In this document: piece after piece, positions 2,954 through 60,069 of the stretch
Layout: every line of letters begins with the position of its first letter
Position numbering within the stretch: position 1 is the stretch's first letter
Source: Thermoanaerobaculia bacterium
GTDB taxonomy: Bacteria > Acidobacteriota > Thermoanaerobaculia > UBA5066
Assembly (NCBI GenBank): GCA_038245905.1
Contig: JBBRRY010000016.1
Span: 4,955-68,954, forward strand
DNA: 64,000 nt
Direction: 5' to 3'
Notes under the pieces: model-generated
What the model was told of the DNA's origin: nothing
Seen by the model: only the letters and a program-made list of their open reading frames with translations
Database searches by the model: none
Program-made: the position numbers and the translations under genes

Positions 2954-5900
2954 TCACCGTCCCGTGCCGGCCGACGCCGGACGCAGGAAGATGTTGGCCG
3001 GGTCGCCCGACACGACGTCGATCTTCGAGGCGAAGGCCAGGAATACGCCGTCGCCGCCCACCTGCCGCACGACGATGCGCACGTCGGTGAGCTCCGAGAG
3101 GTTGAGGCCGAGGATGCTGTGGAACAGCTCGTCCGAGACATAGCCGTTCGGCGGAATCCGCTTAGGGGCGGTGGCGATCGGCACGAACGACCCGGGCAGG
3201 TACGCCGCAATGACGACGTCGCAGTACGAGCCACCGACCTCGTTCAGGATGAGATTCGTGCGGTAGGCAGACGAGCTCTCGGCCCCGTCGAATTCCATCG
3301 TCCCGAGGTTCGACTGGAAGGAAGAGTATCCGTGTCGGTACGAGTAACCTTCCATGCCGGTCTTGAAATCCCCAATGCCGGTCGAAGGCGACACGGTGTA
3401 GGCCTCGGTCTGGACGTCCACGTCCGCCCAGCCCTGCTTGCAGCACGTGCCGTCGCTGTTCGCGACGTTCGCGATCTCGATGTGACCGTAAGTGCCTGAA
3501 AGCGGGGGAAGACCGAACAGATCTTCGAGAACGTCCTCATAAGAAAAGACCGTTCCTCGGCCCAGCGACTGCACACCAGACGTGACGTGGGGAGCGTTAG
3601 GATCGCTGTCGATGTAGGTCAGTGCCACGTTGTGCTGGGTCGTGCCGGTGTTCGTGAGGGTGATGCGCGTCCTCCAGAAGGGCCTGGATCCGTCCTCCAG
3701 AGGCGCGCCTCCCGCGTGGACCGCGGGAAACGAAAGCGGGGGCGGGAAGCCGCCCTGCGGCAGGCTCGCGAGCGCGGCTCGCGTCTGTGAGCCCGCCGTC
3801 ACTCCCACGGCCAGGCCCAAAAGGGGCTGGAGGCCGATCTTTGTGACGCCCACATGAAGCGAGGAATCCTGCGTGCGGTTGTCGATAACGGTGGCCATTC
3901 CGACGACGGAGCCTTTCGTTCCGCCCGCCGGGTCCGCCGCGCTGTTGTCCCTCCACGTGATTTGGGCGTACGCGTAGGACTTTGGGAGTGGCACGGCATC
4001 GAAGAGGTCCACGTCGTCGAAGAGCTGGACGGTCGAATTCGCGGGAATCGTCCGATCGAGGCTCACCGGGAGGCCGTTCTTCAGGATGCGATTGAAATCC
4101 CCGTCGAAGAGGTCGATGAGGACTCGAGTGTCGAACCCCGATGTCTCGAGGAGGAGCAGGTTCGACCGGCGGTTCGCGTCATGGGCGAGGCCCGACACCC
4201 AGTACAGCGGGTCGCTCTGTTTCACTCCTTCGCCCGGAACCGTCGGTCGCATTTCGAAGCCGTACTGTCCGGTTGCCGGCGTGGTTCCGGCCAGGGTTTG
4301 GCGTGAGGCGTTTCGCGCCGCCACCGTGGCCGGGAGCGGCCGGTTGTTGACGAGGGCGGTGGCCGTCAGCGTGGGCGCCGTCGAGCGCACTTCGACGGTG
4401 AACGCCCCTTCGGAGCCGAGGAGCGTCCCGACGACGTTGCGGTAGCGGCGGGTCTCGCCGGCCGCAAGCGTGAGGTCGTAGCGGCGGAGCGCCGAGCCGT
4501 CACCCGGCGCCCCCACCGGGTTGAAAAGTAACGAGACAGGAACCGGAGTCACGGCGTCGGAGTTCGTGAGCCACAGGTCCGCCGCGTAGCGACCGACGCT
4601 TCGCGCGTCGATCGCGTTCGGAAAGGCGGCATAGAGAAGCCTCGTGCGTGCGGCGGCCGCAGGCGTCGCGCCCGCTCCCGTCGCGGCAGGCGCGAGCGCG
4701 GGACCGTCGTCCGAAACGAGAATCGACTCCGGGTTGTCCGGAAAGCCGATCGTGGTGAGAGCGACGGCGCCCACTTCGGTTCCCGTGCCCGAGCGCCTCC
4801 TCGCACGATCCACGACAAGCTGGATCGTTCGCGTCTCGCGTGCGCCGAGCGGGCGATCCCACTGAAGTCCGTCGAGAGACACCAAGGACAGCCACGGGGC
4901 GCGCACGGTCGCGACAAAGGATACGGCGAAATCCGACGGATTCACGATCGCGCGGAGAACCGCACTTCCGTCCCGATCGATATCCGCCGCCGCGTCGCTC
5001 CAGACCACTCTCGCCTTCGAGGGTTCGGCCGTGAGCATGCAGTCGACGGGCACGGTCAACAGTACATTGCCCGCCGTGAGAGTAATCAAGGCGTGCACCG
5101 GACGCACGAGCGCCGTGACGTAGAGCGAGGTCACGCCGATCGACTGCGACGCGTTCGGAGCCAGCGAGAAGGAATCCGGGCTGACGACAAATCCGCTGTC
5201 GTCAGGTTTCGCGCGCACGAGGATCGGATCCGTGCCTCCATTGCGCACGGTGAACGAAGTCGTCGGGTGGGTGCCGGGGGCCGGCACGAGCGCCGCGATC
5301 GGCGCGGGCTCGGAGATGAGCTGGAGGGCGGGCGTCAGGACGTTTCCAACCGTCACGCGCAGGGCGGGGGACCACGGTCCGACGGACCCGCAGGTCGCCT
5401 CGGCGCGCACCTGATAGACGAAGTCGCCCGGAGGGCCTGTGAAGGACGACGCGCCGCCCTCGACCACCCATTCGCTCGCGTTGACCGAGGCGGCGGATGT
5501 CTCGCGGATGCGGAACTTCAGGCCCGTCAGTCCACCGCCCGGACCCGCGCCGATGCCGAGCGTGTTCCAGGTGACGACCCACGTGGAGAAAGCGGGAGGG
5601 TTCGCCGGGGCCGAGACGAGCTCCCCGACGGACGGAGGAACGTCGCATTCGGACTTCACCGCTATGGCGAGGACGTTCGAGACGATTGCGGCGACCGCCG
5701 GGGGCGAGCCGACGGGCGAACAGGATGACTTCACGACGATGCGGTGGTAGAGGACCTTCGCGCTCGCAGGTCCGGGCCCGAGCGTGATCGCCGAGCGCGT
5801 CGTGACGGACTGATCGAGGCCCGACGAGAAGGACGGCTCCGAGGAGCGCTCGACGACGTAGGTGTCGGCGTTCGCAGAGACGGGAGCCGAGGAAGCCGTG

Positions 5901-6079
5901 AAGACGTTCGTCCACGAGAGGGAATACGACTCCCCCGCCTGGACCCCGGCGGGTCCCGTCAGGACGGGAGCCGGGACCGGGCAGGGCGCCCCGGGAGCGC
6001 CCGGAGCCCACGCGGCCGCCAAGGCTCCGAGCAGAGCCGCTCCGAGGGCCGACCGCGAAAGCCGGGAATTCGAACTCAT
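2954..6079 (-). CDS. Large secreted protein (1041 aa) of unknown function, beta-rich with Ig/FN3-like repeats, lying directly upstream of the kinase
   Basis: Intact 1041-aa ORF whose N-terminus MSSNSRLSRSALGAALLGALAAAWAPGAPGAP is a signal peptide. Composition is Ser/Thr/Gly/Val-rich with repeated beta-strand-like segments, and I recognise no catalytic motif. It sits on the same strand 17 nt upstream of the Ser/Thr kinase. Confidence 0.6.
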   Translation of the reverse strand: MSSNSRLSRSALGAALLGALAAAWAPGAPGAPCPVPAPVLTGPAGVQAGESYSLSWTNVFTASSAPVSANADTYVVERSSEPSFSSGLDQSVTTRSAITLGPGPASAKVLYHRIVVKSSCSPVGSPPAVAAIVSNVLAIAVKSECDVPPSVGELVSAPANPPAFSTWVVTWNTLGIGAGPGGGLTGLKFRIRETSAASVNASEWVVEGGASSFTGPPGDFVYQVRAEATCGSVGPWSPALRVTVGNVLTPALQLISEPAPIAALVPAPGTHPTTSFTVRNGGTDPILVRAKPDDSGFVVSPDSFSLAPNASQSIGVTSLYVTALVRPVHALITLTAGNVLLTVPVDCMLTAEPSKARVVWSDAAADIDRDGSAVLRAIVNPSDFAVSFVATVRAPWLSLVSLDGLQWDRPLGARETRTIQLVVDRARRRSGTGTEVGAVALTTIGFPDNPESILVSDDGPALAPAATGAGATPAAAARTRLLYAAFPNAIDARSVGRYAADLWLTNSDAVTPVPVSLLFNPVGAPGDGSALRRYDLTLAAGETRRYRNVVGTLLGSEGAFTVEVRSTAPTLTATALVNNRPLPATVAARNASRQTLAGTTPATGQYGFEMRPTVPGEGVKQSDPLYWVSGLAHDANRRSNLLLLETSGFDTRVLIDLFDGDFNRILKNGLPVSLDRTIPANSTVQLFDDVDLFDAVPLPKSYAYAQITWRDNSAADPAGGTKGSVVGMATVIDNRTQDSSLHVGVTKIGLQPLLGLAVGVTAGSQTRAALASLPQGGFPPPLSFPAVHAGGAPLEDGSRPFWRTRITLTNTGTTQHNVALTYIDSDPNAPHVTSGVQSLGRGTVFSYEDVLEDLFGLPPLSGTYGHIEIANVANSDGTCCKQGWADVDVQTEAYTVSPSTGIGDFKTGMEGYSYRHGYSSFQSNLGTMEFDGAESSSAYRTNLILNEVGGSYCDVVIAAYLPGSFVPIATAPKRIPPNGYVSDELFHSILGLNLSELTDVRIVVRQVGGDGVFLAFASKIDVVSGDPANIFLRPASAGTGR

Positions 6080-6100
6080 CCTTCTCTAGAATCCCCCTCG

Positions 6101-11682: not shown

Positions 11683-11720
11683 GCGGGAGTTTTACACCCT
11701 CCACCGTAAGATCGTCCCTC

Positions 11721-12206
11721 ATGAGCGAACCGGCGTTCACCCTCCGCGACGCACAGCCGGCCGACGTTCCCGCGATCGTCTCCCTGATCCGCGATCTCGC
11801 GGAGTACGAAAAGCAGCCCGAGGACTGCCATGCCGACCCTCGCCTCCTCGAAGAGCATCTCTTCGGCGCGACGCGCTTTGCCGAAGTCGTCCTGGCCGAG
11901 CGGGCCGGCGAGACCGTGGGGTTCGCGCTTTTCTTCCACAACTACTCGACCTGGCTCACCCGGCCGGGCCTGTACCTTGAAGACCTTTTCGTCAAGCCCG
12001 CCTTCCGGGGGCTCGGAATCGGCGAGGCTCTTCTCACCCATCTTGCCCGGCTTGCGGTCGGCCGCGGCTGCGGACGCCTGGAGTGGAGCGTCCTCACCTG
12101 GAACGAAGCCGCAATCAGTTTCTACAGGCGGCTCGGAGCCGTTCCAATGGACGGGTGGCAGGTCTACCGTCTCGCCGGAGACGCCCTGAACCGTCTCGGG
12201 CGATAA
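11721..12206 (+). CDS. GNAT-family N-acetyltransferase
   Basis: The ATG at 11721 gives MSEPAFTLRDAQPADVPAI... The acetyl-CoA-binding motif RGLGIGEALL (R/Q-x-x-G-x-G/A) is present, and the length is about 160 aa. Confidence 0.75.
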   Translation: MSEPAFTLRDAQPADVPAIVSLIRDLAEYEKQPEDCHADPRLLEEHLFGATRFAEVVLAERAGETVGFALFFHNYSTWLTRPGLYLEDLFVKPAFRGLGIGEALLTHLARLAVGRGCGRLEWSVLTWNEAAISFYRRLGAVPMDGWQVYRLAGDALNRLGR

Positions 12207-12233: not shown

Positions 12234-14003
12234 GTGCAAAAGAGCCGATCGCAGACAGACACACAGCCGATTCGCGTCCGCGAGGGGCGGAAGGGTTCCG
12301 GCGTCATGCGGCGCCCTGTGTCGCTGCTCGTGGATTCGCCGGACCCCACGGCACTCTTCGACCGAGCGGGCCGGATTCTCCTTGCGAACGAAGCCGCCCT
12401 CGCGGAAGGCACGCCCGGACCGGGGGCATTCGACGGCGCGCCCGAGAGTGCGCCGCCTTTCTGGCTTTCGCCCGCCGGGCGCGACAGCCTGATCGAGGCG
12501 ACCGCCGTGCCGGGAGGCGCGCGGAACTTCGAGGTGCGCATTCCGGCCGGACCCGAAACGACCGAGCGCATTTTCTGGATCACGACACGCATCGCCGCCG
12601 AATCCGCGTCCGGGGGATTTCTCGCGGCGGCCCGCGAGGTGACCGGGGCAATCGGCGACCTGTCGCGCGCCGGACCCGGCGAGACCGTGGCCGAGGCCGC
12701 CGACGCCCTCACCAGGTTCGCGAACCGCGAGCAGTTCCACTTCGAGCTCGAGCGCGAAATCGCGCGCGCCGACCTCTTCGGGCGGCCTCTCTCGCTCCTC
12801 ATCATCGGGCTCGACAATTTCAAGACCCTGAACGACACACACGGGCTCCTCGCGGGCGACGCATACCTCCGTTCGATGGCCGAGACCCTTCGAGGCACGC
12901 TGATGGCCGGAGAGACCGCGGGACGCGTGGGCGGCGACGAGATCGCGATCCTCCTTCCCGGCGCCTCTGCGGCGGAAGCCGCTCCGCGCGCCGAGATGGT
13001 GATCGGGCTCATTCGCCGCCTCGCGCCCATCTGGGACAGCAATCCGCTCACGCTGACCGCGAGCGCGGGCGTCGCGGTCTTCCCCGAGCATGCGGGCGGC
13101 GCCGCGGACCTCTTCCTAGCCGCCGATCTCGCGATGCACGGGGCCAAGCGTCGCGGCGGGAGCCGCGTGCGCCTCCACGACCCGTCCGATCGCGAGCGCG
13201 ACCGCACGGGCCGGCTGCGCGAGCAGTCGAACCGCATCCGCGCCGCCCTCGCCGAGTCCCGATTCGTGCCCTATTTCCAGCCGGTGGCGGAAGTCGGCAC
13301 GGGCCGCACGGTGGCCGTCGAGACGCTCGCCCGGATGCGTGAGCCCGATGGGCGCATTGCCCTCCCCGCCGAATTCCTCGGCGCCGCCGAGCGATTCGGC
13401 ATCGTGACGGCGATCGATCGCGCCATCATCGCGGCGGCCTTCGACGCTCTCGCGGCGGCCCGGAAGCGGATCAGCCCCGAGCTCGAGATGGGCATCAATC
13501 TGTCGGGCCTCGACTTCGACGACGACACGCTCGTCGCAGACATCTCGCGGATGGCTCGCGCCAAGGGCATACGCCCCGAACGCGTCACCTTCGAGATCAC
13601 GGAAACCGCCGCGCTCCGGGACTTCGACCGCGTGCGCGATTTCACGCACGCGCTCACCAGCGAAGGCTTCCATTTCGCTCTCGACGACTTCGGCATGGGC
13701 TTCTCGTCGTTCCGCTACCTCCGGGAGCTGCCCGTGTCGTCGCTGAAGCTCGACATCAGTTACGTCCGGGACCTCCCGAAGGAGAAGGCGAATCGCGTCT
13801 TCGTGCGGGGAATGGCGGGCATCTGCCGCGGACTCGGCGTCAAGACGGTGGCCGAGGGCGTCGAGACCGAGGAGGTCATGGAGATCCTTCCGGAACTTGG
13901 CGTCGACCGCGCACAGGGCTGGCACGTGGGCTATCCCTCCCCCGACCTCCCGGTCGTCGAAGCGGGCGCCAGCCTCATCCTCCCGCGGAGACCGCGGCCC
14001 TGA
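12234..14003 (+). CDS. GGDEF-EAL dual-domain c-di-GMP turnover protein with an N-terminal sensory region
   Basis: GGDEF-domain block: LSLLIIGLDNFKTLNDTHGLLAGDAYLRSM...RVGGDEIAILL, where the signature reads GGDEI. EAL-domain blocks: YFQPVAEVGTGRTVAVETLARMRE (EAL replaced by ETL), DDFGMGFSSFRYLRELPVSSLKLDISYV and QGWHVGYP. Confidence 0.85.
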   Translation: MQKSRSQTDTQPIRVREGRKGSGVMRRPVSLLVDSPDPTALFDRAGRILLANEAALAEGTPGPGAFDGAPESAPPFWLSPAGRDSLIEATAVPGGARNFEVRIPAGPETTERIFWITTRIAAESASGGFLAAAREVTGAIGDLSRAGPGETVAEAADALTRFANREQFHFELEREIARADLFGRPLSLLIIGLDNFKTLNDTHGLLAGDAYLRSMAETLRGTLMAGETAGRVGGDEIAILLPGASAAEAAPRAEMVIGLIRRLAPIWDSNPLTLTASAGVAVFPEHAGGAADLFLAADLAMHGAKRRGGSRVRLHDPSDRERDRTGRLREQSNRIRAALAESRFVPYFQPVAEVGTGRTVAVETLARMREPDGRIALPAEFLGAAERFGIVTAIDRAIIAAAFDALAAARKRISPELEMGINLSGLDFDDDTLVADISRMARAKGIRPERVTFEITETAALRDFDRVRDFTHALTSEGFHFALDDFGMGFSSFRYLRELPVSSLKLDISYVRDLPKEKANRVFVRGMAGICRGLGVKTVAEGVETEEVMEILPELGVDRAQGWHVGYPSPDLPVVEAGASLILPRRPRP

Positions 14004-14008
14004 TTCAA

Positions 14009-15724
14009 TTGTCCCGTAGCGGGAAGGGCCGTGTATCGGGGCTCGCCGTCGACGTCGCGCTCTTCGTCGTGCTCGGTGCACTCGTGGCCAGCGTCGTCGG
14101 GCTCGCCCAACGCTGGGAAGCGCCGATTCGCCAGGCCGTGGAGATCGACCTTTCGCCCTCGGCCCTGCCTCTGTACACCCTTCTGTCGCTGTCGCGCGGT
14201 TTCGCGGCGTACCTTCTGTCCCTCGCCTTCACGCTCGTCTACGGGACGATCGCGGCGCACGGCAAGCGCGCCGAGAAGGTCATGCTTCCGCTTCTCGACA
14301 TCGGACAGGGGATTCCCGTGCTCGGCTTCCTCCCGGGGCTCGTCCTCGGGATGGTCGCGCTCTTCCCGCGCACGAACGTCGGCCTCGAGCTCGCCTGCAT
14401 CATCATGATCTTCACCGGGCAGGTCTGGAACATGACGTTCTCCTACATCGGTTCCCTGCGTTCGATACCCGAGGAGCTCCATGAAGTCGCCCGCATCCAT
14501 CGCTTCTCGTTCTGGAAGCGCTTTCGGATCGTGGAGGTGTCCTCCTCGGTGATCGGGCTCGTCTGGAACTCGATGATGTCGATGGCCGGTGGCTGGTTCT
14601 TCCTGACCGTCAACGAGGCCTTCACGCTCGGCGACCGGGACTTCCGGCTGCCCGGCATCGGCTCGTACATGGCGGTCGCCATCGAAAAGGGCGACTCCAG
14701 GGCCATGGCGTGGGCCATCTTCGCGATGATCGTCATGATCGTGGCATGCGACCAGCTTCTCTGGCGCCCCCTCGTCGCCTGGTCGCAGCGCTTCCGGAAC
14801 GCGGACGTCGAGGGCGAGGCGGCCCCGGAATCGTGGGTCCTGAATCTCGTACGCCGCTCGGCGTTCCTCCGGAGGCTTCGTCTTCGCAGACGGCGCCGCC
14901 ACGGCGCCGCGGCCCCGTCCCCGGTCTCGCCACCGGCCCTCGCCGAGACCGGCGCCGACACGCGGAGCGCGCGCGTCCGGACCGGCATCCTCGTCGCGTT
15001 CGGCCTTGCGGCGCTCGCCGGCGCGCTCCTCGGAGCGTGGAAGCTCGTCGGCCTTCTCGCGCGGGTCCCCTCCGGCGAATGGGTGGTCCTTGTCTCGGCC
15101 CTCGGTGCGACGTTCCTCCGGACCCTCGCGGCTCTCGCGCTCGCGACGGCCTGGACGCTCCCGATCGGGATCCTCGTGGGCCGCTCCGCCGTCTGGTCGC
15201 GGCGCCTCCAACCCGTCGTCCAGATCGTGGCCTCGTTCCCGGCTCCCATGCTCTTTCCCATCGTGACCGGCGTTCTTCTCGCTCTCCGCGTGCCGTTCGG
15301 CGCCATTGCCGCGGTCCTCATGTTCCTGGGCGCGCAGTGGTACGTGCTCTTCAACGTCCTCGCGGGCGCGAGCGCCATTCCGCACGATCTCGACGAGGCC
15401 GCCGACGTCTACGCGATGAAGGGCACCGCGCGCTGGCGCAAGCTCTTCGTGCCGGCGGTGTTCCCCTTCCTCGTGACGGGCCTCGTGACGGCCGCAGGAG
15501 GAGCGTGGAACGCGTCGATCGTGGCCGAGACGCTGACATGGCGCGGAAGAACGCTGGAGACGTTCGGCCTCGGCTCGCTCATCACGAAGGCGACGCGCGA
15601 CGCCAACTTCCCTCTTCTGACTGCCGGCGTGCTGACGATGTCCCTCGCTCTCGTGCTCCTGAACCGCCTCGTCTGGCGCCGCCTCTACCGTCTCGCCGAG
15701 ACGAAGTACAGTCTCAACCGATGA
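14009..15724 (+). CDS. ABC transporter permease, duplicated (two fused TauC/SsuC-type permease domains; NitT/TauT family)
   Basis: The 571-aa protein has two homologous halves, each with the EAA-loop-like region of binding-protein-dependent permeases (AFTLGDRDFRLPGIGSYMAVAIE... and EAADVYAMKGTARWRKLFVPAVFPFLVTGLVTAAGGAWNASIVAE). The apparent start is TTG at 14009. No substrate-binding protein gene is adjacent. Confidence 0.8.
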   Translation: MSRSGKGRVSGLAVDVALFVVLGALVASVVGLAQRWEAPIRQAVEIDLSPSALPLYTLLSLSRGFAAYLLSLAFTLVYGTIAAHGKRAEKVMLPLLDIGQGIPVLGFLPGLVLGMVALFPRTNVGLELACIIMIFTGQVWNMTFSYIGSLRSIPEELHEVARIHRFSFWKRFRIVEVSSSVIGLVWNSMMSMAGGWFFLTVNEAFTLGDRDFRLPGIGSYMAVAIEKGDSRAMAWAIFAMIVMIVACDQLLWRPLVAWSQRFRNADVEGEAAPESWVLNLVRRSAFLRRLRLRRRRRHGAAAPSPVSPPALAETGADTRSARVRTGILVAFGLAALAGALLGAWKLVGLLARVPSGEWVVLVSALGATFLRTLAALALATAWTLPIGILVGRSAVWSRRLQPVVQIVASFPAPMLFPIVTGVLLALRVPFGAIAAVLMFLGAQWYVLFNVLAGASAIPHDLDEAADVYAMKGTARWRKLFVPAVFPFLVTGLVTAAGGAWNASIVAETLTWRGRTLETFGLGSLITKATRDANFPLLTAGVLTMSLALVLLNRLVWRRLYRLAETKYSLNR

Positions 15725-17064
15725 GCGCCCGCGAGAGCCCCGCCCTCGTCTCCCCGATCGCCGCCGCCCGGGGCGTCGACAAGGTCTACGCCGACGAGGC
15801 AGGACGAAATCGCGTCATCCTCAAACACGTCGATTTCGAGGTGAGGGAGAACGAAGTCGTGGCCGTCCTCGGGCCGTCGGGCTGCGGGAAATCCACGCTG
15901 CTCCGCATCCTCATCGGCCTGATCCCGCCGAGCGCGGGAACCGTCGAGCAGCACGGCAAGCCGCTCGAGGGCATCCACCCCGGCGCCGCGGTCGTGTTCC
16001 AGAATTTCGCCCTCTTTCCGTGGCTCTCCGTCTCGGACAACGTGCGTGTGGGTCTGAACGACCGCCCGCTGCCCGCGGGAGACGCGGAGGCGCGCGTGAA
16101 GGCAGTGCTCGCTGCCGTCGGCCTCTCGGGACACGAGCGCGACTATCCCAAGGAGCTGTCCGGCGGCATGAAGCAGCGCGTCGGGATCGCGCGGGCGCTC
16201 GTGGGGCGGCCCGAGCTCCTCTGCATGGACGAGCCGTTCTCGGCCCTCGACGTGCTGACGGCGGAACTGCTCCGCACCGAGGTGTACCGCCTCTTCACGG
16301 AACGGACGAGCGGGCTCTCTTCGGTTCTCCTCATCACGCATCTCATCGAGGAAGCCGTCTTTCTCGGGGACCGCATCGTCGTCCTCGGCGCGAACCCCGG
16401 CACGGTGCGCCGGGAGATCGTGAACACGGTTCCGCATCCACGCGAGTACCGCAGTCCCGCCTTCCTTCAGATGGTTGAGCTGATTCACGACGTCGTCACC
16501 GGAGTTCATCTCCCCGACTCTCCTTCCGCCCCGGCGGCCACGGTCCCGGGGCGCCGCCTCGCGGGACCGGTCTCCCCGCTCCCGGCCGTGCGCATCGGCG
16601 AGATCCTCGGCCTCCTCGAGATCCTTGCAGATCAAGGGGGCACGATGAATCTCTTCGACATCGACGCGCTGACGGACTACGACTTCGGCCGCACGATCGC
16701 CGTCGCGAAAGCGGCCGAGATGCTCGACTTCGTGGACACGCCGAAGAACGACGTCGTGCTGACGGAATCCGGCCGCCGGATGGTGAAAGCCTCGACCGCC
16801 GAGCGGCCCGCCCTCCTGCGCACCGAAGTACTCAAGCTCGGTGTCTTCTGCCTCGTCATCCGCGAGCTCGCGAAGGATCCCGACGTGCCGCTCGCGGGAG
16901 ATGCCGTGCGCGACCTGCTCGCCGAGCACCTGCCGACGGTGGACGCGTCGGAGCTGTTCGGGACCCTGATCAACTGGGGCCGAGCCGGGCAGCTCTTCGA
17001 CTTCGAATCGGCGTCCGACGCACTCGCGCTCTATTCGGGCCGCGAGGAAGAGGCCGGGGGCTGA
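15721..17064 (+). CDS. ABC transporter ATP-binding protein with a C-terminal accessory domain of about 190 aa (AAA_assoc_C-like)
   Basis: Walker A GPSGCGKST, signature LSGGMKQRVGIARAL, Walker B LLCMDEPFSALD and H-loop ITH. Its ATG at 15721 overlaps the permease stop (ATGA). The extra C-terminal domain (NLFDIDALTDYDFGRTIAVAKAAEMLDFVD...) looks to me like the AAA-associated C-terminal domain found in this transporter subfamily. Confidence 0.85.
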   Translation: MSARESPALVSPIAAARGVDKVYADEAGRNRVILKHVDFEVRENEVVAVLGPSGCGKSTLLRILIGLIPPSAGTVEQHGKPLEGIHPGAAVVFQNFALFPWLSVSDNVRVGLNDRPLPAGDAEARVKAVLAAVGLSGHERDYPKELSGGMKQRVGIARALVGRPELLCMDEPFSALDVLTAELLRTEVYRLFTERTSGLSSVLLITHLIEEAVFLGDRIVVLGANPGTVRREIVNTVPHPREYRSPAFLQMVELIHDVVTGVHLPDSPSAPAATVPGRRLAGPVSPLPAVRIGEILGLLEILADQGGTMNLFDIDALTDYDFGRTIAVAKAAEMLDFVDTPKNDVVLTESGRRMVKASTAERPALLRTEVLKLGVFCLVIRELAKDPDVPLAGDAVRDLLAEHLPTVDASELFGTLINWGRAGQLFDFESASDALALYSGREEEAGG

Positions 17065-17065
17065 A

Positions 17066-17941
17066 GTGGCTCTGCCGCTGCGCCTCGTGTCCCGGACCGC
17101 CGCGGCGCTCTCGGAGAGGCGCGCGCGCCTCGACGCCCTCCTCGCGCGCATCTCGGGTCCGCCGTCGGGCGAGACGCTTCACGATCTTCGCGTCGCGCTT
17201 CGACGAATCGCTGCCCTCGCGCGCTTGACCGGCGACGCGCCCCGGAAGGGCTCGGGCCGCGCGCTCCGGATCGCGGCGCGGGACCTTCGACGCGCCCTTT
17301 CGACGCGCCGGACGGAGGACGTCGCGCGCACTTTGCTCGTCGGCCGTTTCCGGAGGGATCCGCTACGGCGGCCGGTCGCCACGCGCCTCGTCGCGCGGCT
17401 CGCGAGAGAGGGCGATCCCGGACCCTCTCCCGCACACACACGCGCCCTTCTCTCCCGGCTGCGCCGCGCCCTTACGCGTCGAGAGACCTCTCTCGCGCAT
17501 CTCCACGACCCACTCACCGGGACCGCCGACCCCGGCTCCGAGAAATGCCTTGCGAAGGCCGTTCGGCGCCGCCTGCGCAGGGCCGCGAAACACCTTCAAG
17601 CCGTCGGAGCGCCCGGCCCCGCAAACCTCCACCCGGCGCGGATCCTCGCCCGGGACCTCCGCTACGGCCTCGAATTCACGGGCGCCGCGATGCCGGCCCC
17701 CACCGCCCTCGTTCCCCTTCTCATGGACTTTCAGGACACCGCCGGCGCCGCGCACGACCTCTCCGAGCTCATCGCCCTGGTCCGGCGCCTCGCGGGACGC
17801 TCGCGGACCGTGGACCGGCGTGCCGCCTTGCGCCTGCTGCCGCCGATTCTCGCCGCCGAGGAGCGCGCGCTCGCGCGCGCCCAGGCGTCCTCGAAGCGGC
17901 TTCTCGCGAGCCTGAAGAACGTGGACTTCGAATGGCCTTGA
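17066..17941 (+). CDS. CHAD-domain protein
   Basis: LHDLRVALRRIAALARL, ARILARDLRYGLEF and AHDLSELIALVRRLAGR are helical repeats with conserved His/Arg, typical of a CHAD domain. The GTG start at 17066 is 2 nt after the ATPase stop. Confidence 0.65.
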   Translation: MALPLRLVSRTAAALSERRARLDALLARISGPPSGETLHDLRVALRRIAALARLTGDAPRKGSGRALRIAARDLRRALSTRRTEDVARTLLVGRFRRDPLRRPVATRLVARLAREGDPGPSPAHTRALLSRLRRALTRRETSLAHLHDPLTGTADPGSEKCLAKAVRRRLRRAAKHLQAVGAPGPANLHPARILARDLRYGLEFTGAAMPAPTALVPLLMDFQDTAGAAHDLSELIALVRRLAGRSRTVDRRAALRLLPPILAAEERALARAQASSKRLLASLKNVDFEWP

Positions 17942-19761
17942 AGCGAGCCCTCTCTCGCCTCCTCGCCGTTTCGGCTTTCGCGTCCGTATGGCCGGCCTCG
18001 GGCGTCGATTCCGCGGACCTTCGGGCCGGTCGGCGCGTCGTCGTCGTCTCATTCGACGGCGCGAGCGGCCTCGAATTCGGACGGCGACTCACGGCCGGCT
18101 TCTTTTCTCCGAACGGCTTTGCGCGCGCGGCGAAAGAAGGCGAGGCCGCCTCGCGACTGGCCGTGGTCACCCCGTCCCTCACGTCGGTCTCGCACGTCGC
18201 GCTCGCGACCGGCGCGCCGCCCGGCAGGACCGGAATCGTCGGAAACACTTTTCATCCCGCGGGAGCCGCCCTCCTCGAGCGGCGCAGGGGCTTCGACGTC
18301 GATCCCGAGGTCGAAACACTTTGGGAGGCGGCCGCCCGACAGGGCAAGCGCGTGGCATCTCTCAGCTTCCCGGGCGCCTCTCAACGGACGGCTCGCACGC
18401 GCACGGCTCTGGCCCTGAACTACAACGAGGCGTTCCCGAAGGGCATCTTCTGGAAGGGGCCTCTCGCCTCGACTCCTTTCGCCGCCGTCTCGAAGCTGCC
18501 GGCGGGAGTCGCCTCGTTCTCGCCAGCAAAGTCGTTCGACCTCGACGGGCTTCCCTTTCTCATCCTCGACTCCACGGACGACGGCGTAACGAACTACGAC
18601 ACGCTCGCCGTCCTCTCGGCGGACGGAACCGCGCGCGCAGAGGCCCGTGTGGGCGGCTGGTTTCCCATCTCCGAGCGCCGGGACGACGGAGTCGATACGG
18701 GGGTCCTCTTCGGCCGCTGGTCGAAGCTCCTCGCGCTTGCCCCGGATGTGTCCACGGTCTCGCTCTATCTCGGCGATCGCTATCGCACGGTGGCGAACCC
18801 CCCGGAGTTCCGGCGCGCGATCGAGGAGAGGGCCGGCTTCTGGCCGGGCCTGCCCGACATGGCCTTCCTCCGGCGGACCGATCCCGACATTCCGAGCTTT
18901 CTCGAGCAGGCGCGACGTCTCACGCGCTTCTTCGTGGACGCATTCGACGTGGCCGACCGCCGGAGCGACTGGGACCTCCTGCTCGCCTACATCCCGATCC
19001 TCGACGAATGCGAGCACGACCTGCTCGTGACCGACCCCGCGCAGCCCTTCTATACGAAGGCGCTCGCGGCAAAGACGGCCGCCGCCCTCGACGAGGCCTG
19101 GCACGCGGCAGACGAGGCCGCGGCGCGCTACCTGAAGTTTCGGGAGAAGGGAGACGTCTTCTTCGTGTCCGACCATGGCATGCGCGCCATGACACGGTCG
19201 ATCTACCCTGCCGCGATCCTCGCGCGCGCGGGCCTCCTCAAGCTCGCGCCCGGACCCCACGGCCGTCTCGAAACGGCGCCGGACTCGCCGCTCGACTTCA
19301 TCGCCGCGAGCGGAGGCACGGGCTTCGTGGTCGTGAACCGCGCGGGCCTGCCCGGAGGCGTCGTGCCGGAGGGCGAAGCCGAAGCCATCGTCTCGAACGC
19401 CGCCGCGGTTCTCCGCGCCACGAAGGATGAAAAGGGAGCATCCGTCTTCGCCTTCGTGGCCGCGAGGATGGAGGCAGCGGCGCTCGGCCTCGGTCACCCG
19501 AACGCGGGCGACCTCGTGCTCATCGCGGCGGGCCCGCGTTATCTGCGCGGCGACCTTCCGGCGGGCGGAGACCTGGCGGCTCTCGGCCCGCCCGAGGTCC
19601 CCGGCCAGCACGGATTCGATGCCGATCCGGCTCTCGACGGCCTGTACCTTCACGTGGGGGACGGCGTCGGATCCCGGCGCCTCGGTGTCGTGCGCGAGCT
19701 GGACGTGGCAGGCCTCGTCGCCGCCCGCCTCGGCATCGCGCCGCCGGGACAGCTGCCGTGA
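17932..19761 (+). CDS. Alkaline-phosphatase-superfamily type I phosphodiesterase / nucleotide pyrophosphatase (NPP)-like secreted protein
   Basis: MALKRALSRLLAVSAFASVWPASG (signal peptide), VVVVSFDG, PSLTSVSHVALATGAPPGRTGIVGNTF (metal-ligand/nucleophile region of NPP/AlkP enzymes) and FVSDHGM are present. The ATG at 17932 overlaps the CHAD stop. Confidence 0.75.
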   Translation: MALKRALSRLLAVSAFASVWPASGVDSADLRAGRRVVVVSFDGASGLEFGRRLTAGFFSPNGFARAAKEGEAASRLAVVTPSLTSVSHVALATGAPPGRTGIVGNTFHPAGAALLERRRGFDVDPEVETLWEAAARQGKRVASLSFPGASQRTARTRTALALNYNEAFPKGIFWKGPLASTPFAAVSKLPAGVASFSPAKSFDLDGLPFLILDSTDDGVTNYDTLAVLSADGTARAEARVGGWFPISERRDDGVDTGVLFGRWSKLLALAPDVSTVSLYLGDRYRTVANPPEFRRAIEERAGFWPGLPDMAFLRRTDPDIPSFLEQARRLTRFFVDAFDVADRRSDWDLLLAYIPILDECEHDLLVTDPAQPFYTKALAAKTAAALDEAWHAADEAAARYLKFREKGDVFFVSDHGMRAMTRSIYPAAILARAGLLKLAPGPHGRLETAPDSPLDFIAASGGTGFVVVNRAGLPGGVVPEGEAEAIVSNAAAVLRATKDEKGASVFAFVAARMEAAALGLGHPNAGDLVLIAAGPRYLRGDLPAGGDLAALGPPEVPGQHGFDADPALDGLYLHVGDGVGSRRLGVVRELDVAGLVAARLGIAPPGQLP

Positions 19762-20411
19762 TCGCGCCCGCCGTACCTGTCATCCCCGTCGCGTGGGTTG
19801 CATCGTCCGCAGACGTTGCGATTCAACCTCCGTGGACGCTCTCCGGACTGGACGGCGCGCCCGCAAGGTTCGTCGAGACCCGTGTGCGCTTAGCCGCCAC
19901 GGCGGAGCAGTTCGTCGTCCTCTTCGAGTCCACAGCCGAACCGCCGCTTACCGTCGAGCGCCGGCGCGGCGAGGACGTCTTCGATGACGAATGCGTCGAG
20001 CTCTTCCTTTGCCCGCCCGAGGAGCCATACCAGTACCAGGAAGTCGTCGTCAATCCGGCCGGCGCCGTCTACGCGGCACGCGTCGTGAACCCGCACGACA
20101 GCCGCCGAACGTGGAACGTCGTCAGGGGAGAGCCCCCGGCCGGAGTCTTCATCGACGCGCAGGGAGATCCGGCGGCGGGTCCGGCGACGGCGTGGATGCG
20201 ATGGAGCTGTCGTCTCGCCATTCCGTGGTCGTCCCTTCCTCCCGGTCTCCCGCCGGCGCCCGGCGAAGAGAGGCGTGGAAACGTCACACGGATCGCGCGC
20301 GGGCGTTCGACGGAATTCCTCGTGCTCTCGCCGACGTTTCGCGCGAATCCGCCGGACTTTCACGTGCCGAGCCGTTTCGCGCGGTTCGTCTTCGGCACGC
20401 GACCGGCCTGA
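19758..20411 (+). CDS. CBM9-like (carbohydrate-binding family 9 / DOMON-like) domain protein
   Basis: VFDDECVELFLCP and the surrounding beta-strand pattern resemble CBM9-like domains. The GTG start overlaps the phosphodiesterase stop (GTGA). Confidence 0.5.
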   Translation: MIAPAVPVIPVAWVASSADVAIQPPWTLSGLDGAPARFVETRVRLAATAEQFVVLFESTAEPPLTVERRRGEDVFDDECVELFLCPPEEPYQYQEVVVNPAGAVYAARVVNPHDSRRTWNVVRGEPPAGVFIDAQGDPAAGPATAWMRWSCRLAIPWSSLPPGLPPAPGEERRGNVTRIARGRSTEFLVLSPTFRANPPDFHVPSRFARFVFGTRPA

Positions 20412-20416
20412 TCGCT

Positions 20417-20839
20417 TCAGGCGTCAGTTGCGGGCGTTTCGTCCAGGGAAATCCCCTGCGCGGTGAGCCAGACGCGAAGCTCCTCCCGAACCCGCCGGGC
20501 CCGGAACACGAACCAGGCCTCTTCGTCGTTCGGGAACGCGAGGAGCACGTCGCGGAAGGCCCCCGGGCCACCGGACTCGAGGGCGAGGAGCGCCTTCTCA
20601 CGCGCGGCCGCGCTCTCCATCTTCGGCGCGAAGGCGCGGCAGCGCGTCGTGTCGACCTCCGCGGTGGACTTCGGGATCCTGAGAAATCGACCCGAGCGCT
20701 CGTGAAGAAGCGCTTCGCGCAGCTCCGGCGAGCCATTCAGGTGCGCGTGCACCTCGCCCGATGCGCGATCGAGGAAGTGATTCATGAGCATCGAACGCGC
20801 CGCGAACGCGACGGTGAGCCCTTCCCAGTCGAGTTCCAT
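20417..20839 (-). CDS. UPF0158-family protein
   Basis: The internal ATG at 20837-20839 gives MELDWEGLTVAFAARSMLMNHFLDRASGEVHA... of about 140 aa, a pattern I recognise as UPF0158. The longer ORF-track N-terminus is unlikely to be real. Confidence 0.55.
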   Translation of the reverse strand: MELDWEGLTVAFAARSMLMNHFLDRASGEVHAHLNGSPELREALLHERSGRFLRIPKSTAEVDTTRCRAFAPKMESAAAREKALLALESGGPGAFRDVLLAFPNDEEAWFVFRARRVREELRVWLTAQGISLDETPATDA

Positions 20840-21989
20840 GAGACAAGTATGGTATCCCCGCCGTGTGCAGACCGCGCCCCGAAGCGACGTGACGCGCCGC
20901 CTCGCGCGCTGGTATCGCGCACACAAGCGCGATCTACCATGGCGCCGGACGCGTGACCCGTACGCGATCTGGCTCTCTGAAGTGATGGCGCAGCAGACGA
21001 CTCTCGAGGTCGTGGTGCCGCGCTGGAAACGCTTTCGCCGCCGCTTCCCGAAAGTCGACGCCCTCGCGCGGGCTCCTGAGCGGGCGGTGCTCGCCGAGTG
21101 GAGCGGCCTCGGGTATTACGAGCGCGCCCGAAACCTCCAGCGCGCGGCAAAGGCCGTCGTGGAGGCAGGATCCTTTCCGCGCACGCTCGAGGGCTGGCGC
21201 GCACTGCCGGGCGTCGGCGCTTACACGGCGGCCGCGCTCTCGTCGATCTGCTTCGGCGTCCCCGAGCCGGTCGTGGACGGCAACGTCGTGCGCGTCCTCT
21301 GCCGCCTCCACGGCCTCCGGCTCGACCCGAAGGCGCCCGCGACGCTCGCGAAGGTGCGGTCGCTCGCGCGGCCGCTCGTACCCGCGCGGAATCCAGGCGC
21401 CCACAACCAGGCCCTCATGGAGCTAGGCGCACTCGTGTGCACTCCACGGACCCCACTCTGCGGCGAGTGCCCGCTTCGCCCGCTCTGCCGAGCCGCGGCG
21501 CTCGGGACGCCGGAGGCGTTCCCGCGCGCCGGGAAGCGTCCACCCAAGAAGGCGATCCATCTCGCCGCGGGCCTCGTCCGTAGAGACGGGAGATTTCTTC
21601 TCGTTGAAGACCGGGAGATGGTCGACGGCCAGCTCGTGCCCCCGATGTTTCCGGTTCGCGCTGGGAAACCGTCTGCGAATTCTCTTAGAAGGGGGTGGAA
21701 GCGGCTCACGGGTCGCGAGCCTGGCGCGCTCGAGACCGTGGCGACGATTCGCCATTCGGTGCTCGAAAGGCGCTATCTCGTTTCCCTCTTCACCTTCAAA
21801 GAAAATCCCACGTCGCCTTCGCGCTGCCTGCCACTCGACGCAGGTCGATTCCGTCTCTTCTCTCCGAGCCAGATCTCCCGCCACGCCCACGGCGGCCTCC
21901 TGCTCAAGGTGCTCGCGGCGTGGCGGGAGCACCGTGCCAGGGTCAGACGGGGGCCGGACCGGGGCCCTCCCGGGGCACGCAGACACTGA
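20838..21989 (+). CDS. mutY: A/G-specific adenine DNA glycosylase (MutY)
   Basis: WYRAHKRDLPWRRTRDPYAIWLSEVMAQQT, GLGYYERARNL, LPGVGAYTAAA (HhH-GPD) and the 4Fe-4S cluster loop CTPRTPLCGECPLRPLC are present, followed by a NUDIX-like C-terminal domain. The start is ATG 20838 or GTG 20865/20892. Confidence 0.9.
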   Translation: MRQVWYPRRVQTAPRSDVTRRLARWYRAHKRDLPWRRTRDPYAIWLSEVMAQQTTLEVVVPRWKRFRRRFPKVDALARAPERAVLAEWSGLGYYERARNLQRAAKAVVEAGSFPRTLEGWRALPGVGAYTAAALSSICFGVPEPVVDGNVVRVLCRLHGLRLDPKAPATLAKVRSLARPLVPARNPGAHNQALMELGALVCTPRTPLCGECPLRPLCRAAALGTPEAFPRAGKRPPKKAIHLAAGLVRRDGRFLLVEDREMVDGQLVPPMFPVRAGKPSANSLRRGWKRLTGREPGALETVATIRHSVLERRYLVSLFTFKENPTSPSRCLPLDAGRFRLFSPSQISRHAHGGLLLKVLAAWREHRARVRRGPDRGPPGARRH

Positions 21990-30757: not shown

Positions 30758-32254
30758 TCACCTCGTCGGATCCGGCTCCCCGACGTCGCGAGGCTGATCC
30801 GTCCTCAGCCCTCCGGGACGGCCCTCCTTCTCGAACCAGGCCATGGCCCCGAGGATGTGGAACGCGGCCCCGCTCGACCCGAGGCCGACCCCGACGGACA
30901 GGCGGCCCTTCCGGATCAGAAGCGCCCCCCAAGTGCGTCGACGCGTTTCGCGGTAGTCACCTTCGAGGAGAAACGTGCCCGCCTCCAGGCTCGCCTTCGA
31001 GATCGTCAGGCGGCCCGGGGTGCGCACGACGTGGCCCTCCGCTCCGAAGTCGCGCAGGTCGAGGAACCCAGCCAGCCATTTCGGCGGGCCCGTCGGAAGG
31101 AAAGCCACGAGTGGACGGCCATCCCGGAGGCGAGCGGCGACTCGCGCGTCCAGTGCACCGTCGGCGAGCCTGAGACGCGCTTCCGGAGTCGTGAACGTTC
31201 CCTCCCAGGCCTCTCCCGCCGCGCCATCCAGCGAAAGATGCGAAAGCGCGAGGCTTGTCCCGCCGAGTGCGACCGTTCCTGCGTGGAAGTCGATCGGCCG
31301 CGCCCTCAGAGCAGCGCGCGCGGAGCCGCGGAAGACCCGCTTCCCGGCCTTCACGAGGAGCCCCCGCGCGTCGGCGTCGACACGCGCGCCCCCGCGCCCG
31401 CCGTCAAGCACGACGCCGATCCTCACGGACCCGATCCCGCCTGCGACCCGGGCTCCGTCGCCGTCGGAGGAAAGGAAGTCGAGGCCCTGGAGAGTGCCGT
31501 GAAGGTCGGTCATCCCGGACATGATCTTCCACACCTCGTTGCCGGGATAATCCTGCGTCTCGAAACGCGGCAGCGCGGCGCGGATGGCGCCCAGGGTTCC
31601 GCGAGAGACCTCGCCTTCACCGAATTGGAGGGTCCCGCCGGTGACCGAGAGCTCGGCAGGAAAGACCTCGGCATGGCGGCCCGGGAGTAGATCGAGCCCT
31701 CCTCCGAGGCGCGCCGCTCCTGTCCAATGCCAGGAGTCGATCCAGATCTCCCTGACAAGGCGCACGTCGAGCTCGTCCATCACGATCCGCCATGGGTTTC
31801 CCGCGACCGCGGGCGCCGGCGGATCGCGAAGCGGCGGATCGGCGAACCCCACGATGGCGGGATAGCGCGCGAGCCGGGCGGGCGTCGCCTCGAGACGCTC
31901 GAGTCGCTCGCGGAGCCGGAACGAGAGGACCCCCGCGCGCACCGAACTCGCCCGGAAACGGCGCCTCAAGAGATCAGAGAGGCACACGCGAACCGTCACG
32001 CCTTCGAGCCGGGCCTCCCACTCGATGTTCGAATCCCGGCTTCGAAGGAGAAGCATGTCGAATCGGAGGCTCCCGGGCAGGAGCGATCGCGCGCCGGTGT
32101 ATGTGACGAAGAGCGCCTCCGGGTCCGAGTTGATCTGCCCGGAAAGCCAGTCCGACCGCAGCGCGAGATTGGTCGCTCCGACGACGAGAACAAGGCACAC
32201 GCAAGCGGCCACGGCGAGCCCAAGCACGACCTGTCGCGGGCCCGGGCGCGTCAT
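30758..32254 (-). CDS. Membrane-anchored hypothetical protein (498 aa), first gene of the minus-strand stress operon
   Basis: An N-terminal TM segment (VVLGLAVAACVCLVLVVGA) is followed by a long soluble domain with no recognised motif. Confidence 0.5.
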   Translation of the reverse strand: MTRPGPRQVVLGLAVAACVCLVLVVGATNLALRSDWLSGQINSDPEALFVTYTGARSLLPGSLRFDMLLLRSRDSNIEWEARLEGVTVRVCLSDLLRRRFRASSVRAGVLSFRLRERLERLEATPARLARYPAIVGFADPPLRDPPAPAVAGNPWRIVMDELDVRLVREIWIDSWHWTGAARLGGGLDLLPGRHAEVFPAELSVTGGTLQFGEGEVSRGTLGAIRAALPRFETQDYPGNEVWKIMSGMTDLHGTLQGLDFLSSDGDGARVAGGIGSVRIGVVLDGGRGGARVDADARGLLVKAGKRVFRGSARAALRARPIDFHAGTVALGGTSLALSHLSLDGAAGEAWEGTFTTPEARLRLADGALDARVAARLRDGRPLVAFLPTGPPKWLAGFLDLRDFGAEGHVVRTPGRLTISKASLEAGTFLLEGDYRETRRRTWGALLIRKGRLSVGVGLGSSGAAFHILGAMAWFEKEGRPGGLRTDQPRDVGEPDPTR

Positions 32255-32306
32255 TGGCGCCGCCGAACCTCAGCGTACGGGGTTGACGGTGAGAGTCCTT
32301 GCCACG

Positions 32307-41882: not shown

Positions 41883-42680
41883 TCAGGCGGCCCGAACGAA
41901 GAGGATCTTCACCGCCGCGGCAGCGAGAGCGAGGCCGAGCGCGATCAGCGCCCACGTCGACAGTGCCGGGACTGGACTCGAGCCGAGCGGGCTGGGGGCC
42001 GCGAGGTAGGCAATGAGGTTGTTCGAGAACGCCTGCGAAGCCGCGTCGGCACTCGGATCCAGGAAGTTCACGTCGAAGACGAGAATCAAGGCACCCGCGG
42101 CCGCGCCGGAGAGCGTCCCGGGAGACCACACGAGCGACGCTCCGAAGTTCGAGCCGTCCTTCGTCACGTACGCGCCGGTCCCTGTCGTCGGGGAGGCGGC
42201 GGCGGCGAGGAACGTGACGGTCGCGACCGCATTCGGGCCCGTGAAGGGGGATTGAACGGTCTGCGCCTGGCTCACCGGGTTCACTGCCGTGATCGCACCG
42301 CCGCCGGCCGTCGAGACGAGGCTGATGATCGAGTTGTTGCGGGTCGGGAAACCGGTGTTTTCGCCCATCACGAAGAGCGACCCGCCGCCGGCCATGAACG
42401 TGACGTAGGCCGAGATGTCGCTCCCGGTGAGCGGCGTCGTGTTGTTGAACCGGATGTCCCAGATCTGCTTGTACGTCGCGAGGCTGCCCCCGGGAACACC
42501 CACGCTCGGGGTCACGGTATACGTGGCCGCGGCGAGCTTACCCGTCAGGTTCCCGAGAACGTTGGCCTCGAGGCCGGCCGTGCCGTCGTGAACGATCAGC
42601 GCGTTGGCGGCCAGGCCGACACCTGGCGCAGAGAGAAGGAGGGCGACCAACGCCCGGGTGAGCATGGACCGTATACTCAT
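41883..42680 (-). CDS. Secreted protein with a C-terminal IPTL-CTERM-like sorting tail
   Basis: The N-terminal signal peptide is MLTRALVALLLSAPGVGLAA. The C-terminus SPVPALSTWALIALGLALAAAAVKILFVRAA has a P-x-L-S-x-W motif plus a TM helix and a short basic tail, as in IPTL-CTERM (exosortase-family) sorting signals. Confidence 0.6.
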   Translation of the reverse strand: MSIRSMLTRALVALLLSAPGVGLAANALIVHDGTAGLEANVLGNLTGKLAAATYTVTPSVGVPGGSLATYKQIWDIRFNNTTPLTGSDISAYVTFMAGGGSLFVMGENTGFPTRNNSIISLVSTAGGGAITAVNPVSQAQTVQSPFTGPNAVATVTFLAAAASPTTGTGAYVTKDGSNFGASLVWSPGTLSGAAAGALILVFDVNFLDPSADAASQAFSNNLIAYLAAPSPLGSSPVPALSTWALIALGLALAAAAVKILFVRAA

Positions 42681-42747
42681 CTTGGTTCCTTTCGGTCTCC
42701 CCGTCCGGAGAGCCCGTCGAGCGGATTCAGAAATTTCGAGAATCCTA

Positions 42748-60056: not shown

Positions 60057-60069
60057 CGGGGAGCCCGCG

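Follow-up and report, generated by a model that had tools for sequence, protein, structure and literature searches.

A modular gene string confined to one Thermoanaerobaculia clade carries an orphan ABC transporter pair with possible links to Mg2+ homeostasis

We analysed a stretch of 64,000 nucleotides (henceforth the window; G+C about 68–70%) from the genome of a Thermoanaerobaculia bacterium (GenBank assembly GCA_038245905.1, contig JBBRRY010000016.1, positions 4,955 to 68,954), in which six open reading frames (ORFs) on the plus strand fill positions 12234–20411. These encode, in order, a cytoplasmic sensor-GGDEF-EAL protein (12234–14003, 589 aa, GTG start; Pfam GGDEF 2.4e-32, EAL 1.3e-62), a fused, duplicated type-I ATP-binding cassette (ABC) permease (14009–15724, 571 aa from a TTG; BPD_transp_1 7.4e-31, in two stretches), an ABC ATPase (15721–17064; ABC_tran 5.4e-33, followed at residues 314–428 by AAA_assoc_C, PF09821, 3.1e-19), a CHAD-domain protein (17066–17941, 291 aa; Pfam CHAD 8e-18), a phosphodiesterase of the NPP/alkaline-phosphatase superfamily (17932–19761, 609 aa; Phosphodiest 2.6e-25) and a CBM9/DOMON-like beta-sandwich protein (19758–20411, 217 aa; CBM9_2 1.6e-5). 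A preliminary description of this DNA had given the same coordinates and tight packing, the six domain assignments, the two halves of the 571-aa permease chain, the additional C-terminal domain of the ATPase and the variant signatures GGDEI and ETL of the first protein. All of these are borne out, with the CBM9-like assignment marginal in Pfam and upheld by a structure model.

Read directly from the sequence, neighbouring genes are separated by gaps or overlaps of 1–10 nt. The stop codon (TGA) of the GGDEF-EAL gene is followed after 5 nt by the TTG at 14009, the permease and ATPase genes overlap by 4 nt (ATGA, 15721–15724), and a single nucleotide lies between the ATPase and CHAD genes (TGA-A-GTG, 17062–17068). 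The ATG of the NPP gene at 17932 precedes the CHAD stop codon (TGA, 17939–17941), giving an overlap of 10 nt, and the NPP and CBM9-like genes again overlap by 4 nt (GTGA, 19758–19761). It is uncertain whether the permease starts at this TTG; its orthologues are called at 546–573 aa, which would place the gap to the GGDEF-EAL gene between -4 and 80 nt.

The GGDEF-EAL gene had been taken as the first of the operon. It is in fact preceded on the same strand by a GNAT acetyltransferase gene (ORF open from 11658, probable ATG at 11723, end at 12206; 161 aa, Pfam Acetyltransf_1 1.2e-20), which ends 27 nt upstream and is conserved in relatives, so that the string comprises seven genes. Its downstream end is marked by a convergent UPF0158-like gene (20417–20926, minus strand), the position of which is also kept in relatives. 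Terminator-like sites within the string are no commoner than in shuffled sequence, and a scan for sigma-70-like promoter sites, uninformative for Acidobacteriota, gave zero matches. The seven genes are probably co-transcribed from the GNAT gene onwards. A TAAGAT hexamer ends 8 nt upstream of the probable GNAT start codon (window 11683–11725), so close to it that no ribosome-binding site fits, which suggests that the GNAT transcript is leaderless; the coding region of the divergent methyltransferase ORF upstream ends at 11682.

In the GGDEF domain of the first protein of the six, the DxFKxxND and RxGGDE motifs are intact and the RxxD I-site is absent, while the last residue of the GGDEF motif varies among orthologues (GGDEI, GGDEV or GGDEF). 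The catalytic motifs of the EAL domain are all intact (ETLxR, NLS, EITE, DDFGxGxS, KLD, EGVE and QG). Judged by these motifs, the protein is a turnover enzyme of cyclic di-GMP (c-di-GMP), with an EAL domain that should be fully competent.

The permease aligns over its full length with 19 homologues (29–62% identity). The AAA_assoc_C match of the ATPase reaches 70 bits against a cut-off of 27.6, and the tail that it identifies is acidic (isoelectric point, pI, 4.5) and is modelled as two tandem winged-helix-like units (pLDDT 92). A fold search of this tail against the PDB returned generic winged-helix matches only (best E 8e-3), and a homologue search with the tail alone gave 30 matches, mostly fragments, and is silent on stand-alone PF09821 proteins. 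The pair misses the cut-offs of the NitT/TauT equivalogs (ntrB 63 versus 209 bits, SsuC 26 versus 347, taurine ATPase 190 versus 357), and NCBIfam places none of the six proteins in a named equivalog. As the preliminary description had stated, there is no substrate-binding protein nearby: none is encoded by the flanking genes or by 20 further large window ORFs that were scanned. The cognate binding protein of canonical NitT/TauT systems (NrtABCD, CmpABCD, SsuABC, TauABC) is thus absent, both in the window and at 98 homologous loci (see below). What we find instead are the features of the fused-permease/PF09821-ATPase family, namely two BPD_transp_1 halves in one chain, a PF09821 tail on the ATPase, adjacent genes and no binding-protein gene.

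Among solved structures the nearest are NrtBCD and CmpBCD (PDB 8wm7, 9u9z), which belong, like the window pair, to the NitT/TauT superfamily and match its nucleotide-binding domain (NBD; E 1e-47) and transmembrane domain (TMD; E 2e-12). However, these systems need a binding protein (NrtA, CmpA), and their permease is a homodimer of single TMDs, whereas that of the window is a fused double of which the C-terminal half alone matches CmpB and NrtB. Their regulatory domain, moreover, resembles a substrate-binding protein, whereas the tail of the window ATPase is a tandem winged helix. A different likeness, by architecture and Pfam/COG family, is to CLIBASIA_02420/02415 of Ca. Liberibacter asiaticus (COG4986 permease plus PF09821 ATPase, 'Nrt/Ssu/Tau-like'; PMC3688454). 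This pair has the same two tandem TMDs in a single polypeptide and the same C-terminal PF09821 domain of winged-helix type, and forms a two-gene unit without a binding protein, whereas the window pair sits between GGDEF-EAL and CHAD genes. The Liberibacter pair was named a "possible novel ABC system" in 2012 (PMC3688454). The duplicated permease without a binding protein, pointed out in the preliminary description, is confirmed, but its architecture was already on record. The homologue of L. crescens falls in the essential gene set defined by Tn5 mutagenesis, and the Ca. L. asiaticus gene is up 7-fold in planta (PMC4837290). We found no functional study of a PF09821/COG4986 pair in the literature, and the window transporter adds a member to a family that is known but has yet to be characterised.

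The CHAD match spans 223 of the 228 Pfam profile positions, and the protein is strongly basic (pI 11.9) and has no signal peptide. With the solved CHAD granule proteins (PDB 6qv7, 3e0s; PMC6537752) it shares the Pfam match, the basic composition and a weak sequence match (6qv7 at 1e-6); it differs from them in having no CYTH/TTM, PPK or PPX partner, being paired with the CBM9-like protein and sometimes with the NPP. The association of CHAD domains with polyphosphate, noted in the preliminary description, is supported by their reported binding of this polymer (PMC6537752). Both the pI of the window protein and its weak match to solved CHAD domains are consistent with that report, and it too would bind polyphosphate.

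The NPP begins with a basic-hydrophobic, signal-peptide-like segment common to four orthologues and is predicted to be secreted. Invariant in these four are residues D42, T84, D358, H362, D414, H415 and H560 and the motifs SFDG, PSLT, LDxxxH, SDHG and QHG. The invariant residues are the counterparts of the Thr nucleophile and of all six metal-binding residues in the Xanthomonas axonopodis NPP (PDB 2gsn), to which the nucleophile region aligns, although the window protein is some 220 aa longer and the overall sequence match is weak (E 3e-3).

For the CBM9-like protein the Pfam match lies just above its threshold (25.2 bits, cut-off 25) and a PDB sequence search was insignificant (0.15), leaving the fold search alone as informative. 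The structure model (pLDDT 91) has the same beta-sandwich fold as the PF16011 CBM9_2 protein 4jpq (E 4.7e-12, TM 0.74), with an identity of only 18%, and also matches the true CBM9 modules 1i82 and 7nwo (TM 0.63–0.64; 0.63 for the Thermotoga maritima CBM9); we therefore uphold the marginal assignment. Haem-binding DOMON-like subunits appear among the lower-ranked fold matches. Unlike 4jpq, the window protein has no signal peptide, and none was seen in any of 35 orthologues, across which the motifs DECVELF, RRGNxxRIARG and PPDFHVPSRFA are strongly conserved. The subfamily has only about 154 detectable members, all of the same type, and is restricted to the clade. Given the signal peptide of the NPP and the lack of one in the CBM9-like orthologues, the two proteins probably reside in different compartments, at odds with the joint capture of a substrate that had been proposed.

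Close homologues of the permease (70–98% identity) all come from metagenome-assembled genomes (MAGs) of Thermoanaerobaculia or Acidobacteriota, and nine homologous contexts were read (L001, L002 and L083–L089). Two of them hold all six genes, with MarC and GNAT genes ahead (L083 and L084, permease identity 92% and 86%). Five have the GNAT, GGDEF-EAL, permease, ATPase, CHAD and CBM9-like genes and no NPP (L085, 84%; L001, 80%; L086, 79%; L087, 74%; and L088, 78% over residues 149–570 only). The most divergent locus, L089, has no ABC pair and consists of GNAT, PAS-GGDEF-EAL (with a weak PAS_4 match), CHAD, NPP and CBM9-like genes, closed up around the absent pair with an 81-nt gap left. In L002 (71%) the ABC pair stands alone between a kdpD-N/Usp gene and kdpCBAF. 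The GNAT orthologue, again of 161 aa, lies directly upstream of the GGDEF-EAL gene in L001 and L083–L089. In two of these loci single genes look damaged, by decay or perhaps by assembly error: the permease of L088 (5080–6796) seems disrupted, being called at 381 aa with a stray 64-aa ORF in the gap, and the CBM9-like gene of L084 (15735–16352) is called at only 139 aa.

In the seven ABC-carrying relatives with the string, the start-stop overlaps that join the ATPase, CHAD, NPP (where present) and CBM9-like genes are kept, even as the identity of the CBM9-like protein falls to about 52%. Over the same loci the GGDEF-EAL and ABC genes show identities of 73–93%, the CHAD and CBM9-like genes 52–79% and the NPP, where present, 72–75%, and the gradients across the relatives fit vertical descent. 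The genes of L089 are uniformly distant from those of the window (41–62% identity), its NPP (46%) and CBM9-like gene (51%) included; most simply, then, the NPP would have belonged to the CHAD/CBM9-like module from early on and have disappeared from several lineages. The ABC pair, for its part, looks like an independent insertion or deletion in the string. The six-gene composition is real, yet it is confined to one Thermoanaerobaculia clade and is modular. The arrangement recurs, but with parts that come and go, and it was not found outside this clade. The statement that no characterised system has such a composition still stands. All six proteins belong to known families, and their clade-specific order is not evidently that of an integrated system.

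Outside the clade, the permease belongs to a very large family, with at least 7,966 close matches and 855 clusters (50% identity, E≤1e-30) in more than ten phyla. Scanning the GTDB species genomes with a profile yielded 599 loci; we retained 80 of these and added 18 annotated contexts on plasmids or chromids, which were also scanned with Rfam, for a total of 98. The 80 GTDB loci include Acidobacteriota, Bacteroidota, Verrucomicrobiota, Planctomycetota, Myxococcota, Gemmatimonadota, Bdellovibrionota, Thermotogota, Chloroflexota, Dormibacterota, Chlamydiota and others, and in about 75 of them a tailed ATPase gene adjoins that of the permease, in either order and mostly at a spacing of -4 to +30 nt. 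At none of the 98 other loci did a CHAD, NPP, CBM9-like or binding-protein gene lie beside the pair. Likewise, 60 same-strand neighbour ORFs of the homologues contained no CHAD, Phosphodiest, CBM9_2, GGDEF, EAL or binding-protein family, and the only families that recurred among them were OlsB/OlsA-type acyltransferases (three) and OprB porins (two). Other recurrent flanking ORFs (a SurA-like peptidyl-prolyl isomerase, MalQ and a 3-hydroxyacyl-CoA dehydrogenase) were rejected as partners, reflecting mostly lineage synteny. The permease and ATPase are therefore a self-contained two-gene module of a widespread orphan family, one that is retained in reduced genomes such as those of Liberibacter and of a Rhabdochlamydiaceae MAG. 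Two contexts deserve a separate mention. In a Cryosericum MAG (L007, 13083–15152) a gene for an H+-translocating pyrophosphatase lies 48 nt downstream of the pair on the same strand, the sole H_PPase match among the 60 neighbour ORFs being ascribed to this ORF by its length. On plasmid pCENA543e of Nostoc sp. CENA543 (L092), a 30.5-kb mobilizable plasmid from a saline-alkaline lake, the pair lies between relaxase and transposase genes and looks like the main cargo.

The homologues display regulatory features and neighbours that may divulge what the pair transports. An M-box Mg2+ riboswitch has been located by transcriptomics in the 5' untranslated region of a COG4986 transporter of Bifidobacterium breve (PMC5746004). 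In Tsukamurella tyrosinosolvens (L095; NZ_LR134465.1, 3655–7930) an mgtC-permease-ATPase series is immediately preceded by an M-box (RF00380, 108 bits); MgtC and AAA_assoc_C of this series are upheld by Pfam, and its mgtC is partnered with the orphan ABC genes, not with a P-type ATPase. In Mycolicibacterium, both an M-box and a gene of Nramp type occur no farther than 3.5 kb from the pair. In a Centralia MAG from the unbiased GTDB set (L059; JAJPKG010000340.1, 4476–6857) an M-box was detected about 400 nt upstream of the permease with a covariance model built from two actinobacterial plasmid M-boxes and was then confirmed by Rfam (123 bits); the sole ORF in between is of 67 aa, and the contig stops before the ATPase gene. 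A weak match of the M-box model at another locus (L021, E 0.054) was not confirmed by Rfam, and an Rfam scan of ten diverse GTDB loci showed no riboswitch. A different Mg2+-related leader, the Salmonella-type mgtC leader (RF02887, 65.7 bits, threshold 48), is found on a plasmid of Escherichia albertii (L102; NZ_CP030786.2, 3112–6359), where it is followed by an ORF of 72 aa and then by a duplicated permease and an ATPase of 260 aa without the PF09821 tail; none of 5,426 complete E. coli genomes searched yielded this element.

Genes related to cations also recur around the pair. MgtC follows it in Cupriavidus taiwanensis and in Aureimonas, the latter also having a kinase/regulator pair and a PiT gene in divergent orientation. 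An Nramp gene precedes the pair in Thermus and another lies near it in L003, a VIT gene follows it after 4–19 nt in two Burkholderiaceae, and FetAB is found near it in Pantoea. At least eight loci from Acidobacteriota or Verrucomicrobiota (L002, L013, L027, L028, L036, L038, L043, L078) have kdpA/B/C genes no more than 10 kb from the pair, and in three of them (L013, L027, L038) the order kdpABC-ATPase-permease runs on one strand. The P-type ATPase of L007, only 31% identical to KdpB, was not counted. An OprB-family porin gene lies immediately beside the pair at five loci of three lineages (L004, L010, L012, L096, L098; Acidobacteriota and Proteobacteria) and could encode its outer-membrane partner.

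M-boxes are found "almost always" upstream of Mg2+ transporters, and the same logic led to the identification of NrmT (PMC4072509); the classes of Mg2+ transporter listed so far include no ABC type (PMC12810186). With the M-box Mg2+ transporters (MgtE, CorA, MgtA/B, NrmT) and the mgtCBR operon the homologues of the pair share Mg2+-sensing leaders and mgtC neighbours, whereas the fold of the pair is unrelated and the window copy has no such leader. Because homologues follow Mg2+-sensing RNAs and adjoin mgtC and cation transporter genes, we infer that the ABC family serves cation homeostasis, most probably the acquisition of Mg2+.

Elsewhere in the window, the string is flanked upstream by UvrA and methyltransferase genes on the minus strand, ahead of the plus-strand GNAT gene, and downstream by the convergent UPF0158 gene and then MutY-like, methyltransferase and Wzy_C genes. 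No pho genes were found among the 20 further large window ORFs scanned. Four large minus-strand ORFs have no Pfam match (E≤0.01 for 2954–6085; E≤1e-5 for 30758–32269, 41883–42791 and 59124–60365) and a coding-type G+C content at third codon positions. The largest of them, of 1,043 aa, adjoins a Ser/Thr kinase and an FHA-RDD protein. Between 34890 and 38613 (minus strand) high G+C and a strong AT skew at 36–38 kb coincide with long minus-strand ORFs, which resemble exopolysaccharide genes (sugar transferase, glycosyltransferases) as judged from their translations alone and not from profile searches.

How do these genes belong together? Our best explanation, on which we are evenly divided, is that the string is a mosaic of three modules, in which the expression of a cation ABC pair goes together with that of a polyphosphate/phosphate module and of a c-di-GMP enzyme. 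The GNAT and sensor-GGDEF-EAL genes would form one module, devoted to c-di-GMP turnover. The ABC pair, a second, would be a cation transporter, most likely for ATP-driven import of Mg2+ that needs no binding protein, and the acidic tandem winged-helix tail in the cytoplasm may act as a regulatory (feedback) domain. The third would be a polyphosphate/phosphate accessory set made up of the CHAD and cytoplasmic CBM9-like proteins, joined in some lineages by the secreted NPP. By established physiology, cells store polyphosphate as its Mg/K salt and the homeostasis of Mg2+ is linked to that of phosphate, which could account for the co-expression of the modules; the clade would then express the supply of cations, the handling of polyphosphate, the scavenging of phosphate and a c-di-GMP switch in concert.

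Several points weigh against this explanation. Neither an M-box nor any other Rfam element was found in the window, where our custom M-box model also gave no match, and mgtC, corA, mgtE, ppk, ppx and pst are not among the window ORFs scanned. By our estimate the Mg2+ link draws on about ten of roughly 100 contexts, and the nearest solved relatives are anion systems (nitrate and bicarbonate). No BPD_transp_1 importer is known to dispense with a binding protein or to transport metal cations. The separate losses of the ABC pair and the NPP argue against a tight functional coupling of the modules. Furthermore, the whole neighbourhood from UvrA through MutY to Wzy_C is syntenic in all cluster-bearing loci, so the conservation of the string could be inertia and not selection. 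The genes might accordingly be mere neighbours of no common function, drawn into a single transcription unit within a syntenic stretch of housekeeping genes. The differing evolutionary rates of the modules and the mostly stand-alone state of homologous pairs elsewhere would fit this too, as would the way in which the pair and the NPP come and go. We nevertheless consider it rather doubtful, in view of the start-stop overlaps maintained despite the divergence of the CBM9-like gene, the closing up of the L089 genes around the missing pair and the lack of an above-chance terminator-like signal within the string.

The preliminary description can be read as proposing a single coupled system, in which the secreted NPP and the CBM9-like protein would capture and hydrolyse an extracellular phosphoester or nucleotide-sugar, and the product would enter through the ABC transporter; the CHAD protein would provide the link to polyphosphate, and the GGDEF-EAL protein would regulate the whole. 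Such a system could explain the tight or overlapping junctions, the signal peptide and intact active site of the NPP, the CHAD domain with its polyphosphate binding (PMC6537752) and the nearness of the NBD to anion importers. It is nonetheless highly improbable, for the NPP is gone from five relatives and the pair from L089, independently of each other, and CHAD, NPP and CBM9-like genes never accompany the pair at the 98 other loci. A system of this kind is also hard to reconcile with a CBM9-like protein without an export signal and a transporter without a binding protein. Elsewhere the pair is tied to Mg2+-sensing regulators, and not to Pho-type control or to phosphate and anion genes; the import of a phosphoester is not supported. 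The pair may, on the other hand, not be an importer at all, but an exporter, or else an ABC machine for mechanotransduction or regulation, with a tail that binds DNA or a partner protein and with Mg2+ links that reflect a membrane or stress response. The analysis of 2012 questioned whether the system is a transporter at all (PMC3688454), MgtC is a regulator and not a transporter (PMC12810186), the neighbours VIT and FetAB are exporters, and the modelled tandem winged-helix tail and the missing binding protein would fit such a machine. We think this unlikely, since, from what is established on ABC folds, importers are the only systems known to have BPD_transp_1 permeases, and the genes controlled by M-boxes are almost always those of Mg2+ importers (PMC4072509). 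The acidity of the tail, moreover, is unfavourable for DNA binding, and the E. albertii variant does without the tail altogether.

To return to the three-module mosaic, its boldest form would be that the pair is an unrecognised, binding-protein-independent ABC-type uptake system for Mg2+ (or divalent cations), the missing transport partner of MgtC in organisms without MgtA/B, which was recruited in this clade beside a CHAD/NPP/CBM9-like polyphosphate module under a c-di-GMP enzyme. We put this forward tentatively, as a possibility that is more likely to fail than to hold. The operon itself is of modest interest, although the clade-specific CHAD/CBM9-like/NPP trio gives a modest entry point to how Acidobacteriota handle polyphosphate. 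Of real value is what points to Mg2+ for the transporter family. Its links to three independent M-boxes and to an mgtC leader, together with its adjacency to mgtC, provide a testable hypothesis of ABC-type Mg2+ or cation transport for an orphan family that has been without an assigned function since it was noticed in 2012. If true, it would add a further class of prokaryotic Mg2+ transporter to CorA, CorB/C, MgtE, MgtA/B and NrmT, and would bear on the question of which partner MgtC has in bacteria without MgtA/B.

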